A stretch of 64,000 nucleotides of DNA. It comes from Escherichia coli. Lineage in GTDB: Bacteria > Pseudomonadota > Gammaproteobacteria > Enterobacterales > Enterobacteriaceae. A program made the position numbers and the translations under genes. The stretch is from NCBI RefSeq assembly GCF_050320075.1, contig NZ_CP190018.1; one strand, 5' to 3'. The notes beneath the pieces were generated by a model. That model was not told the DNA's origin and made no database searches. It saw nothing but the letters and a program-made list of their open reading frames with translations. Of this stretch, positions 2,559-47,014 are shown in pieces. Numbering within the stretch: the first letter of the stretch is position 1; each line of letters starts with the position of its first letter.

Positions 2559-3557
2559 TCATAACGCCTGGATTTTGGCCCACACGCTGTCATCAACGGT
2601 GATGCCGTTACGGCGGTTTTCGGCCAGCAGGGTAGTAAATTCGTGGCCGGGTAAGCGGATGGCCTGGTTTTCGTCAGCGCGTTCAGCGGTAGTAACGTAA
2701 TCCATGATGCGTTGCAGCTTTGCATCGCGGGTGGGGCCGTCGATCAATTTATCCACTTCGATGGCGATAAAGATTTGCGAAACGCCGTATTCGTCGCTGT
2801 TGTCCTGGGTGACTTCGGCAACCGATGCGCCGTCGGAAAGGAGAGTGGCGATCATATCCAGCACAATCGACATGCCAGAACCTTTCCAGTAGCCCATCGG
2901 CAAAATGCGGCGATTCTTCTCGATAACGCCAGGTTCTTTGGTCAAATTGCCCTCATCATCAAAGCCACCATCAACCGGGAGCTGACGACCTGCCAGACGG
3001 TTAACTTCTAACATGCCGTAAGAGAACATCGACATCGACATATCGACCATGGTGATTGGGGTAGAAGGAATGGCGACGATCAGCGGGTTGGTGCCGATGC
3101 GACACTCTTTTGCGCCCCACGGCGGCATTACGGCGATGGAGTTGGTCCAGCAAATGCCAATATAGCCTTTTTCCGCCGCCTGCCAGCCGTAGCTGCCGCC
3201 GCGCATCCAGTGGTTGGCATTACGTAGTGCCACCAGACCAATACCATGATCGGCAGCCAGTTCGATGGCGCGATCCATCATCTTTTTCGCTGTCAGGTTA
3301 CCGATCGAACGCTGGGCGTCCCACTGTTCAATTGCGCCGAGGCTGGTTATACGTTTGGGTTGGGCATCAGGAATGATATCGCCGTTTTCCAGTTGTTGAA
3401 TGAAACGAGGGAAACGGTTGACGCCGTGAGAATAAACGCCGGATTCGGTGGTGCGGGCGAACATCTCGGCACAGGCATCAGCCGTTTCGCTGTCAACGCC
3501 GCGTGAAATTAAGACTCGATTAAAGGCTGCTTTTAACTGCTCAAATGTCACTTTCAT
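2559..3557 (-). CDS. yiaK: 2,3-diketo-L-gulonate reductase (Ldh2-type dehydrogenase), 332 aa
   Basis: ORF track 2559..3557; recognised YiaK sequence; first gene of operon. Confidence 0.9.
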
Positions 3558-3757
3558 CCCTGGCTTCCTTGTTTTTTTGATCGCTTTTTTGGCTTAAAAT
3601 TTCAATATGCGAAATCTGATTTCAAATATATCGATCGCTTTTTAACAAAGCAATCTGATTGATGAATTTCAAAAAACTTAAAAATCAAGTGGTTATAAAT
3701 TATCTGTCGAGATCGTGAACTACGACACACTTTGCGCTACCATCAGGACGCGACAAA
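3558..3757. promoter_or_regulatory. divergent yiaK-operon / yiaJ control region
   Basis: 200-bp AT-rich gap between divergent yiaK and yiaJ starts; YiaJ-repressed promoter is known to lie here in K-12; individual sites not resolved by eye. Confidence 0.5.
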
Positions 3758-4606
3758 ATGGGGAAAGAAGTGATGGGAAAAAAAGAGAACGAGATGGCGC
3801 AGGAAAAAGAGCGTCCAGCCGGAAGCCAGAGTCTGTTTCGCGGGTTGATGCTGATTGAGATTTTGAGCAACTATCCAAACGGTTGTCCGTTGGCGCATCT
3901 TTCGGAGCTGGCTGGTTTAAATAAGAGTACCGTCCATCGCTTATTGCAGGGATTACAGTCCTGCGGCTATGTGACCACCGCGCCCGCCGCAGGGAGTTAC
4001 CGCCTGACTACCAAATTTATTGCCGTCGGGCAGAAGGCGCTGTCTTCGCTGAATATCATTCATATCGCCGCTCCGCATCTTGAGGCACTGAACATCGCCA
4101 CTGGTGAAACCATTAACTTCTCCAGCCGCGAAGACGATCACGCTATTTTGATTTATAAGCTGGAACCCACAACCGGGATGCTGCGAACCCGTGCCTATAT
4201 AGGCCAGCATATGCCGCTCTACTGTTCCGCAATGGGCAAGATCTACATGGCGTTTGGTCACCCGGACTACGTGAAGTCATACTGGAAAAGCCATCAGCAT
4301 GAGATCCAGCCGTTAACCCGCAATACCATTACCGAGCTGCCCGCGATGTTCGACGAACTGGCGCACATTCGTGAAAGCGGAGCGGCGATGGACAGAGAAG
4401 AAAACGAACTCGGCGTCTCCTGTATTGCTGTTCCGGTGTTTGATATTCATGGGCGGGTGCCGTACGCCGTGTCGATTTCTCTTTCGACATCACGTCTGAA
4501 ACAGGTGGGGGAGAAAAATCTCCTGAAACCACTGCGTGAAACCGCGCAGGCTATTTCTAATGAACTGGGATTTACTGTCAGGGACGACCAGGGCGCGATC
4601 ACATAA
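3758..4606 (+). CDS. yiaJ: IclR-family transcriptional repressor of the yiaK operon, 282 aa
   Basis: ORF track 3758..4606; N-terminal HTH, C-terminal IclR effector domain. Confidence 0.9.
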   Translation: MGKEVMGKKENEMAQEKERPAGSQSLFRGLMLIEILSNYPNGCPLAHLSELAGLNKSTVHRLLQGLQSCGYVTTAPAAGSYRLTTKFIAVGQKALSSLNIIHIAAPHLEALNIATGETINFSSREDDHAILIYKLEPTTGMLRTRAYIGQHMPLYCSAMGKIYMAFGHPDYVKSYWKSHQHEIQPLTRNTITELPAMFDELAHIRESGAAMDREENELGVSCIAVPVFDIHGRVPYAVSISLSTSRLKQVGEKNLLKPLRETAQAISNELGFTVRDDQGAIT

Positions 4607-16830: not shown

Positions 16831-18285
16831 ATGTATATCGGGATAGATCTTGGCACCTCGGGCGTAAAAGTTATTTTGCTCAACGAGCAGGGCGAGGTGG
16901 TTGCTGCGCAAACGGAAAAGCTGACCGTTTCGCGCCCGCATCCACTCTGGTCGGAACAAGACCCGGAACAGTGGTGGCAGGCAACTGATCGCGCAATGAA
17001 AGCCCTGGGCGATCAGCATTCTCTGCAGGACGTTAAAGCATTGGGTATTGCCGGCCAGATGCACGGTGCAACCTTACTGGATGCCCAGCAACGGTTATTA
17101 CGCCCTGCCATTTTGTGGAACGACGGGCGCTGTGCGCAAGAGTGCGCTTTGCTGGAAGCGCGAGTTCCGCAATCGCGGGTGATTACCGGTAACCTGATGA
17201 TGCCCGGATTTACTGCGCCTAAATTGCTATGGGTTCAGCGGCATGAGCCGGAGATATTCCGTCAAATCGACAAAGTATTGTTACCGAAAGATTACTTGCG
17301 TCTGCGTATGACGGGGGAGTTTGCCAGCGATATGTCTGACGCAGCTGGCACCATGTGGCTGGATGTCGCAAAGCGTGACTGGAGTGACGACATGCTGCAG
17401 GCTTGCCACTTATCTCGTGACCAGATGCCCGCATTATACGAAGGCAGCGAAATTACTGGTGCTTTGCTACCTGAAGTTGCGAAAGCGTGGGGTATGGCGG
17501 CGGTGCCAGTTGTCGCAGGCGGTGGTGATAATGCAGCTGGTGCGGTTGGTGTAGGAATGGTTGATGCTAATCAGGCAATGTTATCGCTGGGGACGTCGGG
17601 AGTCTATTTTGCTGTCAGCGAAGGGTTCTTAAGCAAGCCAGAAAGCGCCGTACACAGCTTTTGCCATGCGCTACCGCAGCGTTGGCATTTAATGTCTGTG
17701 ATGCTGAGTGCAGCGTCGTGTCTGGATTGGGCTGCGAAATTAACGGGCCTGAACAATGTCCCAGCTTTAATCGCGGCTGCTCAACAGGCTGATGAAAGTG
17801 CCGAGCCAGTTTGGTTTCTGCCTTATCTTTCCGGCGAGCGTACACCACACAATAATCCCCAGGCGAAGGGGGTTTTCTTTGGTTTGACTCATCAACATGG
17901 CCCCAATGAACTGGCGCGAGCAGTGCTGGAAGGCGTGGGTTATGCGCTGGCAGATGGCATGGATGTCGTGCATGCCTGCGGCATTAAACCGCAAAGTGTT
18001 ACGTTGATTGGTGGCGGGGCGCGTAGTGAGTACTGGCGTCAGATGCTGACGGATATCAGCGGTCAGCAACTCGATTACCGCACGGGGGGGGATGTGGGGC
18101 CAGCACTGGGCGCAGCAAGGCTGGCGCAGATTGCGGCGAATCCAGAGAAATCGCTCATTGAGTTGTTGCCACAACTGCCGTTAGAACAGTCGCATCTACC
18201 AGATGCGCAGCGTTATGCCGCTTATCAGCCACGACGAGAAACGTTCCGTCGCCTCTATCAGCAACTTCTGCCATTAATGGCGTAA
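16831..18285 (+). CDS. xylB: xylulokinase, 484 aa
   Basis: ORF track 16831..18285; FGGY kinase N-terminus MYIGIDLGTSGVK. Confidence 0.95.
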   Translation: MYIGIDLGTSGVKVILLNEQGEVVAAQTEKLTVSRPHPLWSEQDPEQWWQATDRAMKALGDQHSLQDVKALGIAGQMHGATLLDAQQRLLRPAILWNDGRCAQECALLEARVPQSRVITGNLMMPGFTAPKLLWVQRHEPEIFRQIDKVLLPKDYLRLRMTGEFASDMSDAAGTMWLDVAKRDWSDDMLQACHLSRDQMPALYEGSEITGALLPEVAKAWGMAAVPVVAGGGDNAAGAVGVGMVDANQAMLSLGTSGVYFAVSEGFLSKPESAVHSFCHALPQRWHLMSVMLSAASCLDWAAKLTGLNNVPALIAAAQQADESAEPVWFLPYLSGERTPHNNPQAKGVFFGLTHQHGPNELARAVLEGVGYALADGMDVVHACGIKPQSVTLIGGGARSEYWRQMLTDISGQQLDYRTGGDVGPALGAARLAQIAANPEKSLIELLPQLPLEQSHLPDAQRYAAYQPRRETFRRLYQQLLPLMA

Positions 18286-18381
18286 ACGTTATCCCCTGCC
18301 TGACCGGGTGGGGGATAATTCACATCTATATATATCAGTAATTAATTAATATTTAGTATGAATTTAGGTAATGACTCCAAC

Positions 18382-18885
18382 TTACTGATAGTGTTTTATG
18401 TTCAGATAATGCCCGATGACTTTGTCATGCAGCTCCACCGATTTTGAGAACGACAGTGACTTCCGTCCCAGCCTTGCCAGATGTTGTCTCAGATTCAGGT
18501 TATGTCGCTCAATGCGCTGAGTGTAACGCTTGCTGATTACGTGCAGCTTTCCCTTCAGGCGGGATTCATACAGCGGCCAGCCATCCGTCATCCATACCAC
18601 GACCTCAAAGGCCGACAGCAGGCTCAGAAGACGCTCCAGTGTGGCCAGAGTGCGTTCACCGAAGACGTGCGCCACAACCGTCCTCCGTATCCTGTCATAC
18701 GCGTAAAACAGCCAGCGCTGACGTGATTTAGCACCGACGTAGCCCCACTGTTCGTCCATTTCAGCGCAGACAATCACATCACTGCCCGGCTGTATGCGCG
18801 AGGTTACCGACTGCGGCCTGAGTTTTTTAAGTGACGTAAAATCGTGTTGAGGCCAACGCCCATAATGCGGGCGGTTGCCCGGCAT
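18382..18885 (-). CDS. insB: IS1 InsB (transposase catalytic part, normally expressed as InsAB by -1 frameshift), 167 aa
   Basis: ORF track 18382..18885; overlaps insA 3' end in -1 frame. Confidence 0.9.
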
Positions 18886-19079
18886 CCAACACCATTCATG
18901 GCCATATCAATGATTTTCTGGTGTGTACCGGGTTGAGAAGCGGTGTAAGTGAACTGCAGTTGCCATGTTTTACGGCAGTGAGAGCAGAGATAGCGCTGAT
19001 GTCCGGCAGTACTTTTACCGTTACGCACCACGCCTTCAGTAGCTGAGCAGGAGGGACAACTGATGGAGATGGAAGCCAC
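18804..19079 (-). CDS. insA: IS1 InsA, 91 aa
   Basis: ORF track 18804..19079; [30 protein letters not shown]... zinc-finger/HTH InsA. Confidence 0.9.
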
Positions 19080-19146
19080 GGGAGCACCTCAAAAACACCA
19101 TCATACACTAAATCAGTAAGTTGGCACCATTACCCCGGGCTTTTAT

Positions 19147-20142
19147 TTAACTCACTAGTCTGTTTCTGTCGATTCGTTGTACCAGCATAGAAAGTAACAA
19201 ACTCGCTGCCAACGTCGCGCAAAAGATCCAAATAATATCGAGTATTGGCCAGTTTTTAAGCTCAATCCCCCGGGTGCGCAGTGCATGGATAATCAAGGCG
19301 TGGAATCCGTATATACCCAACGAATGGCGGGAGATTAAGCCAAGTCCGCGAACGGTACGCGTATCAAGCGTGTTTTTAACCAGAGTCAATAGCGTGATTG
19401 CGCAGATAAAAACCATCGGCCCACAGTAAAGATACCAGGTATCGGCAAAATTTCCGCGCCACTGCAATTCATATAATGTCCCGCGAGAGATAATAAAAAC
19501 CCCCGTCGCAAACAGTGCGGCGCTCCCCCACGACAGTGCTTTATGCTGTGTGTCCATCATCCCTATAGCGCGGCCCAACATGCCATAAAGGATGTAGTAA
19601 AAAGTATCGCCATTGATATATAAGTTAATTGGCAGCCATTCAAAACCGTCAATTTTCTGCGGCACTGTGTTTGGGTTAGCGATAATACCAATCACCACCA
19701 TTAGCACCAGCAACATTTTTCCGCCGACGTTCTTCACCTGAATCAGCGGTGAAACCAGATAAATCACCGCAATCGCGAAGAAAAACCACAAGTGGTAAAA
19801 CACTGGCTTTTGCAGCAGGTTTTTCAGCGCTAACTCCACATTGATGGAGGTAGACAGCGCAATGTAGAGCAGTGCGATTGCGCTATAAAAAAGCAGACAT
19901 AAGCCGATACGTAAAAAATGGCGCGGCTGGGCGCTGCGTTCGCCAAAAAAGAGATAGCCGGAAATCATGAAAAATAGCGGCACGCTGACACGAGAGGCAG
20001 AATTCAGAACATTGGCGATATCCCAGGTGACGGGGCTAACACTATGAGCATTGGTCACATACCAGGTAGTGGTGTGAATCATCACCACCATTAAACACGC
20101 TATCCCTCGCAGGTTATCAATCCAGTAAATTTTGGGCTGCAT
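19147..20142 (-). CDS. wecH: membrane O-acetyltransferase for enterobacterial common antigen (acyltransferase-3 family), 331 aa
   Basis: ORF track 19147..20142; multi-TM acyltransferase; stop codon 12 bp from IS1 end. Confidence 0.85.
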
Positions 20143-37387: not shown

Positions 37388-37806
<419 letters not shown>

Positions 37807-45889: not shown

Positions 45890-45997
45890 ATGACGCTCGC
45901 AGAGCTGGGCATGGCCTTCTGGCATGATTTAGCGGCTCCGGTCATTGCTGGCATTCTTGCCAGCATGATCGTGAACTGGCTGAATAAGCGGAAGTAA
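45890..45997 (+). CDS. ldrD: Ldr type I toxin peptide, 35 aa, copy 1
   Basis: MTLAELGMAFWHDLAAPVIAGILASMIVNWLNKRK; last 36 codons of ORF-track 45755..45997. Confidence 0.8.
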   Translation: MTLAELGMAFWHDLAAPVIAGILASMIVNWLNKRK

Positions 45998-46258
45998 CGT
46001 GTCAGACGGGCGTCAGGCTGCCGTAATGGCAATTTGCGCCCGGACCAGGCCGCAGGGATAAAACTCTGCGGCCTTTTTCGTAAGAAAAATGCAACGGTTG
46101 CAAGCGGATAATATTCTGCTGAATGCACAGCACAGAGTGAAGAAGTGATGGATTTCGACGAACAAAAATGGCCGTAGAATCAGCGGCAAGCCGGAAGGGT
46201 TCCGGTGAGGCGCAATGTTGCGGGGGGCTTTATCCCTGGTGGCATTGGTTGCTGGAGA

Positions 46259-46324
46259 GAGAAAACCCCCGCACGTTGCAGGTATGCACCTGACAACACC
46301 ACGGGGGCCATTCTTGCATCTAGA
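46259..46324 (-). ncRNA. Rdl-type antisense sRNA, copy 2 (approximate ends)
   Basis: Same promoter and terminator architecture as copy 1, shifted by 484 bp. Confidence 0.45.
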
Positions 46325-46373
46325 CCATTCAAGAATAGCCGCGAAACGTTGTCATTACAACTCAGGCGGCTAT

Positions 46374-46481
46374 ATGACGCTCGCAGAGCTGGGCATGGCC
46401 TTCTGGCATGATTTAGCGGCTCCGGTCATTGCTGGCATTCTTGCCAGTCTGATCGTGAACTGGCTGAACAAGCGGAAGTAA
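46374..46481 (+). CDS. Ldr type I toxin peptide, 35 aa, copy 2
   Basis: MTLAELGMAFWHDLAAPVIAGILASLIVNWLNKRK; last 36 codons of ORF-track 46215..46481. Confidence 0.8.
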   Translation: MTLAELGMAFWHDLAAPVIAGILASLIVNWLNKRK

Positions 46482-46741
46482 CGTGTCAGACGGGCGTCAG
46501 GCTGCCGTAATGGCAATTTGCGCCCGGACCAGGCCGCAGGGATAAAACTCTGCGGCCTTTTTCGTAAGAAAAATGCAACGGTTGCAAGCGGATAATATTC
46601 TGCTGAATGCACAGCACAGAGTGAAGAAATGATGGATTTCGACGAACAAAAATGGCCGTAGAATCAGCGGCAAGCCGGAAAGGTTCCGGTGAGGCGCAAT
46701 GTTGCGGGGGCTTTATCCCTGGTGGCATTGGTTGCTGGAGA

Positions 46742-46807
46742 GAGAAAACCCCCGCACGTTGCAGGTATGCACCTGACAACACCACGGGGGCTAATCTTGA
46801 CTCTAGA
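46742..46807 (-). ncRNA. Rdl-type antisense sRNA, copy 3 (approximate ends)
   Basis: Same architecture shifted by a further 483 bp; body carries several substitutions relative to copy 2. Confidence 0.4.
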
Positions 46808-46856
46808 CCACTCAAGAATAGCCGCGAAACGTTGTCATTACAACACAGGCGGCTAT

Positions 46857-46964
46857 ATGACGCTCGCAGAACTGGGCATGGCCTTCTGGCATGATTTAGC
46901 GGCTCCGGTCATTGCTGGCATTCTTGCCAGTATGATCATGAACTGGCTGAACAAGCGGAAGTAA
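46857..46964 (+). CDS. Ldr type I toxin peptide, 35 aa, copy 3
   Basis: MTLAELGMAFWHDLAAPVIAGILASMIMNWLNKRK; last 36 codons of ORF-track 46689..46964. Confidence 0.8.
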   Translation: MTLAELGMAFWHDLAAPVIAGILASMIMNWLNKRK

Positions 46965-47014
46965 CGTGTCATGCGGGCGTCAGGCTGCCGTAATGGCAAT
47001 TTGCGCCCGGATCA

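Follow-up and report, generated by a model that had tools for sequence, protein, structure and literature searches.

The complete IS1 that lies between xylB and wecH in the Escherichia coli stretch analysed here (64,000 nucleotides, hereafter the window) is probably the copy that survived when IS1 eroded the yiaB-yiaA interval step by step, the last step being homologous recombination between two direct IS1 copies. The original prediction had put forward, instead of a simple insertion, an IS1 adjacent deletion or a recombination of two IS1 copies, and this view agrees with both a nested series of deletions and a two-IS1 intermediate that we found among relatives. The locus is arranged in the window as follows:

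16831..18285, plus strand: xylB (xylulokinase), intact, open reading frame of 484 aa
18286..18366: kept part of the xylB-yiaB intergenic DNA, 81 bp, ending in TGAATTTA at 18359..18366
18367..19134, minus strand: complete IS1, 768 bp, insA-proximal end towards wecH, without a target-site duplication
19135..19146: remnant CCGGGCTTTTAT, 12 bp, from the hairpin of the yiaA terminator (right arm plus T-tail)
19147..20142, minus strand: wecH (O-acetyltransferase), intact, open reading frame of 331 aa, stop codon 12 bp from IS1

The open reading frame coordinates bear out the gene ends that had been claimed, 18285 for xylB and 19147 for wecH. The xylB sequence is identical to the annotated WP_001551823.1 in three relatives, YZLc1-3 (GCF_025583585.2, locus L001), Ec-U3 (GCF_060473275.1, locus L002) and CFSAN061763 (locus L003), and the wecH product is identical to WP_001551822.1. 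The space between the two genes had been described as an 81-bp spacer plus a complete 768-bp IS1; both parts are there, and the description had omitted the last 12 bp (861 = 81 + 768 + 12). The 9-mers flanking IS1, ATGAATTTA on the left and CCGGGCTTT on the right, are indeed not a direct repeat, and searches by blastn and tblastn across the 64 kb found neither yiaA nor yiaB, as had been noted. A second IS1 copy was likewise not found in the 64-kb window. This layout is a structural fact of the sequence in which chance plays no part.

Members of the IS1 family measure ~768 bp and have imperfect terminal inverted repeats of ~23 bp that start with GGTAATG or GGTGATG. The element at 18367..19134 has this length and such repeats, GGTAATGACTCCAACTTACTGAT and GGTAATGGTGCCAACTTACTGAT, which match at 20 of 23 positions. 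Its coding features are the following:

18804..19079, minus strand: insA, 91 aa, GTG start, matching NCBIfam NF033558 positions 1-81, with the Zn-binding domain NF050000
18382..18885, minus strand: insB reading frame, matching NF033558 positions 75-199 (of 199) with 147.7 bits
18828..18822, minus strand: A6C frameshift motif AAAAAAC (TTAAAAAACTC), site of the -1 frameshift that leads to the InsAB' fusion

The insA and insB' frames are joined by the predicted -1 frameshift at A6C, and the identical IS1 copy in YZLc1-3 carries the annotation 'programmed frameshift'. An identical copy has the domains PF03811, PF12759 and PF03400 (Zn-ribbon/HTH/DDE). Judged by these features, the window IS1 looks intact. 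At 768/768 positions it agrees with both copies of YZLc1-3 and with those in Ec-U3, GCA_052874255.1 and GCA_050489405.1; there are 51-52/768 differences from the IS1A-type copies in strains 81 and HCP17S3_I4, and 36/768 from the one in strain H32. The 8-9 bp target duplication is missing between its flanks, as is expected of an IS1 copy that went through deletion or recombination, so the reading as a simple insertion fails while membership in the IS1 family is unaffected.

The expected gene order xylB-yiaB-yiaA-wecH is seen in IS-free relatives, among them many complete E. coli genomes whose flanks are 100% identical to those of the window; there, xylB is followed by yiaB (113 aa), yiaA (145 aa) and the convergent wecH, with YiaB and YiaA recognised as such by NCBIfam. 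MG1655 likewise has the order xylB-yiaB-yiaA-wecH (PMC10652928). It had been suggested that the missing interval be defined against a reference, and a comparison with the IS-free CFSAN061763 sets it at 940 bp (L003 2568..3507), comprising 86 bp upstream of yiaB, yiaB, yiaA and, from the yiaA terminator hairpin, its left arm and its loop. This hairpin, AAGCCCGGTCAGTCCAATGTGACCGGGCTT followed by TTATTT, occupies L003 3486..3515, and the breakpoint falls between L003 3507 and 3508. The fixed IS1 junction cuts the stem-loop of this intrinsic terminator, of which only the 3' arm and the T-tail are kept.

A 734-bp segment made up of the 3' part of yiaB and of yiaA matches 5420 of 5426 complete E. 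coli genomes, always on the chromosome and with a median of one copy. The yiaBA pair is near-core in E. coli, and its full loss is rare given how widely this segment is present. The two genes are separate transcription units (PMC10127797). Both lie within a deletion of the genome-reduced strain DGF-298, so yiaBA is dispensable in the laboratory (PMC10652928).

These comparisons also bear on the idea that IS1 simply inserted into a lineage already without yiaBA, or that its duplication was erased by point mutations. The original prediction had named two observations that would speak against it, an IS-free lineage that also lacks yiaAB and a yiaA/yiaB copy transposed elsewhere. In the IS-free clade members both genes are intact and the flanks show 0 differences; the 64-kb window has no yiaAB copy at another place. 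The 734-bp segment matches nearly all complete genomes, and the flanks of the window map 940 bp apart in the IS-free L003. We rejected simple insertion in either form as next to impossible.

Relatives of the window preserve the locus in a series of states, here numbered S0 to S4:

S0, L015 (SRR13893734), L016 and L017: IS-free, yiaB and yiaA intact; nothing lost
S1, GCA_052874255.1 and GCA_965285185.1: xylB, intact yiaB, yiaA nt 1-108, IS1, wecH; 359 bp lost
S2, Ec-U3 (human urine, Burkina Faso) and GCA_050489405.1: xylB, yiaB nt 1-120, IS1, wecH; 734 bp lost (L003 2774..3507)
S3, YZLc1-3 (chicken, China): xylB, IS1, 214-bp segment with the yiaB remnant, IS1, wecH; the S2 loss plus a second IS1
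S4, the window: xylB, IS1, wecH; 940 bp lost

The S0 and S1 assemblies and the second S2 assembly (GCA_050489405.1) were retrieved by means of a clade-specific GlyS variant; WecH was uninformative as a look-up query, its variant being too widespread (7,640 blocks). The right junction beside wecH, IS1 followed by CCGGGCTTT, is constant from S1 to S4, and S1 shares with the window both this junction and the IS1 sequence. The left junctions across S1-S4 fall at L003 3148, 2773 and 2567. Checking lineage members for the same junctions, as had been proposed, located the right junction in S1-S3 and both junctions of the window in YZLc1-3. Among the 5,426 complete genomes, the right junction occurs in one piece only in YZLc1-3 and Ec-U3, and this confinement makes it the mark of a single ancestral event. 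A primary state of simple insertion, with IS1 between duplicated CCGGGCTTT or a duplicated yiaA site, was not found among the relatives examined.

The S2 element also lacks a duplication, with GGCGTGTTA on its left and CCGGGCTTT on its right, and the Ec-U3 locus (L002) equals L003 with 2774..3507 replaced by IS1. In S3, the two IS1 copies (L001 2568..3335 and 3550..4317, both on the minus strand) are 214 bp apart. The left copy lies 81 bp after xylB, in direct orientation to the right one, and is a normal insertion, since TGAATTTA flanks it on both sides as an 8-bp duplication. Removing this copy and one TGAATTTA from YZLc1-3 yields Ec-U3 at every base (exact string comparison). The left junction of the window is the left junction of the left S3 copy, and its right junction is that of the right S3 copy. 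Removing one IS1 and the 214 bp (982 bp in all) from YZLc1-3 gives the window without a mismatch in 5,901 nt, again by exact string comparison. The sister state YZLc1-3 therefore holds a direct IS1 pair that brackets exactly the DNA missing from the window. A literature search on strain YZLc1-3 found nothing.

The strains in question are closely related. Across the 64 kb, aside from the IS region, Ec-U3 differs from the window at 0 SNPs, YZLc1-3 at 1 and the IS-free CFSAN061763 at 9 (four-way MAFFT alignment, excluding window 18300..19140, where IS1 was misaligned against the yiaBA of CFSAN061763). With so few SNPs over 64 kb, the four belong to one young clone. The IS-free S0 locus L015 matches the window without a single difference across ~13 kb of flanking sequence. 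The sole SNP of YZLc1-3, at window 29382, is private to it, which makes YZLc1-3 a cousin of the window rather than its ancestor.

We also observed that a 168-bp RtT-like tandem unit (window 37557..37724), downstream of the tRNA-Pro gene beside eptB, varies in copy number. Two units are present in the window, in YZLc1-3 and in 348 complete genomes, and one each in Ec-U3 and CFSAN061763. The indel was rejected as a marker that would group the window with YZLc1-3, and the two-unit state is ancestral given its presence in 348 genomes; Ec-U3 and CFSAN061763 would each, apparently, have lost a unit independently. A T at window 37628 is common to the window and YZLc1-3 only. The base suggests that the window may be closer to YZLc1-3 than to Ec-U3, and it is uninformative for Ec-U3, which has lost the RtT unit that contains the site. 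NMBU_W05E18, a 99.8% relative in the RtT region, belongs to ST38/phylogroup D (PMC7311804).

Two further features of the window were noted. An IS150 (IS3 family, with a programmed frameshift) separates glyS from hokA at ~24008..25377. Every close relative examined has it at this position, and it appears to be an old, fixed insertion. The MG1655 gene order has insJ/insK beside hokA (PMC10652928). Three tandem type I toxin genes of the Ldr family lie between yhjV and bcsG at ~45,890..46,970 (coordinates by offset from L007 47372..48446, annotation from the identical YZLc1-3 sequence). They are the usual ldr/rdl repeat cluster.

The states described above can be ordered into a route. An IS1 became fixed within the hairpin of the yiaA terminator, 12 bp past the wecH stop codon, and ever more of the DNA on the other side of this junction is missing, 359 bp in S1, 734 bp in S2 and 940 bp in S4. 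The path from S0 through S1 to S2 could have been either an insertion followed by recombination or intramolecular transposition of IS1, that is, adjacent deletion. A second, identical IS1 would then have inserted at TGAATTTA in direct orientation to give a two-copy, S3-like ancestor, and RecA-type recombination between the 768-bp direct repeats would have cut out, as a circle unable to replicate, the 214-bp yiaB remnant along with one IS1. In recA+ cells, recombination is frequent between direct repeats of ~0.8 kb with 214 bp between them. The IS1 that survived would be a hybrid, with its left flank from one copy and its right flank from the other, and would carry no target-site duplication because its flanks come from different copies. 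As all IS1 copies are identical, no crossover point or chimera can prove recombination.

Adjacent deletion and recombination may both have contributed to the series. Relatives show a fixed IS end, the other end at new sites, no duplication and nested end-points, a pattern that would fit adjacent deletion and insertion-then-recombination equally well. The 940-bp loss was no single event: it adds up from two or three successive steps at the least, all anchored at the same end of IS1.

The main alternative concerns the last of these steps. An IS1 in the S2 state may have transposed intramolecularly (replicatively) into TGAATTTA, 206 bp leftward, and deleted the yiaB remnant in one step; YZLc1-3 would on this view have received its second IS1 independently, at the same TGAATTTA hot spot. 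The product of recombination is identical to that of such a direct adjacent deletion from S2 to TGAATTTA. A nested series in which one end of the IS stays put while the other moves (S1, S2, S4) is the classical signature of IS1 adjacent deletion, and the window is separated from Ec-U3, an S2 strain, by no SNP over 64 kb. Other strains, moreover, have independently acquired IS1 at both left-hand sites. H32, whose yiaBA is intact, has its IS1 variant exactly at TGAATTTA, in the same orientation and bounded by the identical 8-bp duplication. The IS1A-type copies in strains 81 and HCP17S3_I4 lie exactly at GGCGTGTTA in yiaB with a 9-bp duplication. The target duplications are placed as follows:

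L004 2593..2600 and 3369..3376: TGAATTTA
L005/L006 2591..2599 and 3368..3376: GGCGTGTTA

The left junctions of S2 and of the window are recurrent IS1 targets given this reuse in H32, 81 and HCP17S3_I4, and an independent hit at TGAATTTA is less improbable because the site is a hot spot. Adjacent deletion nevertheless requires two independent transpositions at the same base pair within a very young clone, whereas recombination reuses one insertion that has already been observed. Same-orientation IS1 copies are also found elsewhere, at ~+73, +86, +159, +207, +318, +507, +570 and +599 bp from the site, and the TGAATTTA hot spot is not exclusive, since insertions in other lineages are spread over at least 8 further positions. 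We consider the one-step deletion unlikely and favor recombination between two direct IS1 copies as the final event.

We note separately that TGAATTTA and GGCGTGTTA are reused base-pair-identically, in the same orientation, by diverged IS1 variants in unrelated lineages. IS1 is found somewhere in the ~1-kb xylB-wecH interval in ~29 of 5,426 complete genomes, at many positions. It is conceivable, if rather improbable, that TGAATTTA, which lies upstream of yiaB, and GGCGTGTTA, at yiaB codon 40, are base-pair-precise IS1 hot spots specific for orientation, perhaps directed by a host factor, or that the erosion of yiaBA in an IS1-rich clone was selected rather than neutral.

An assembly artefact would be another way to arrive at the window, from a true YZLc1-3-like structure whose identical IS1 copies were collapsed and whose 214 bp were dropped. 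The two structures differ only by the 982-bp unit between identical repeats, and the exact arrangement of the window occurs in no complete RefSeq genome and in no other public sequence examined. This explanation is very improbable all the same: the 64 kb run contiguously through IS1 and IS150, which points to long-read or hybrid data that normally resolve 1 kb, a short-read collapse usually breaks contigs at IS copies rather than joining them cleanly, and the product seen in the window is biologically expected.

Lost with the interval are both inner-membrane proteins of the YiaA/YiaB family, the promoters of the two genes and the terminator of yiaA; xylB and wecH remain intact. wecH, which converges on the junction, is now without a terminator-like site between its stop codon and IS1, and none is left in window 18200..19300. 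Transcripts of wecH probably run into the insA end of IS1, read-through being likely because IS1 is co-directional with wecH and its insA end lies 12 bp from the stop codon. With yiaB and yiaA absent from the 64-kb window, the source strain would be a naturally occurring double knockout of two still uncharacterised proteins of the inner membrane. The locus is a clean natural illustration of the way in which an IS comes to lack a target duplication. With four successive states kept in public genomes, it could be used in teaching or as a clonal marker of the sublineage. Its importance beyond strain typing is slight; what interest remains lies in the preserved natural intermediates and in the base-pair-precise reuse of two IS1 targets.

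As an element, the window IS1 resembles the IS1A/IS1B-type members of the IS1 family from E. coli and Shigella in its 768 bp, its ~23-bp repeats, its insA and insB' frames and its A6C motif. It departs from its sister copies, which carry 8- or 9-bp duplications, in having none, because its two flanks derive from two different insertion/deletion events. As an event, it belongs to a type that is already known; this is standard IS biology and calls for no new mechanism. IS1-promoted deletions in the gal region are a classical example of extending adjacent deletions. Target duplications are documented to be lost when identical ISs recombine or when an adjacent deletion occurs, and in the Lenski long-term lines the adjacent deletions of IS150 begin small and grow over time (PMC11708052). 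The series described here is like the gal and IS150 deletions in its fixed IS end, its growth from 359 to 734 to 940 bp and its lack of a duplication. It differs from the Lenski time course in that it was assembled from natural isolates (chicken, human urine and others), and from one-step intramolecular transposition in that a two-copy intermediate can be seen for at least one of its steps, which points to recombination. The likeness to recombination between direct IS repeats lies in the two-copy intermediate of a clonal relative and in a product with one IS, the outer flanks and no duplication; compared with such recombination in general, the interval here is very small (214 bp) and is itself the remnant of an earlier IS1-associated deletion.
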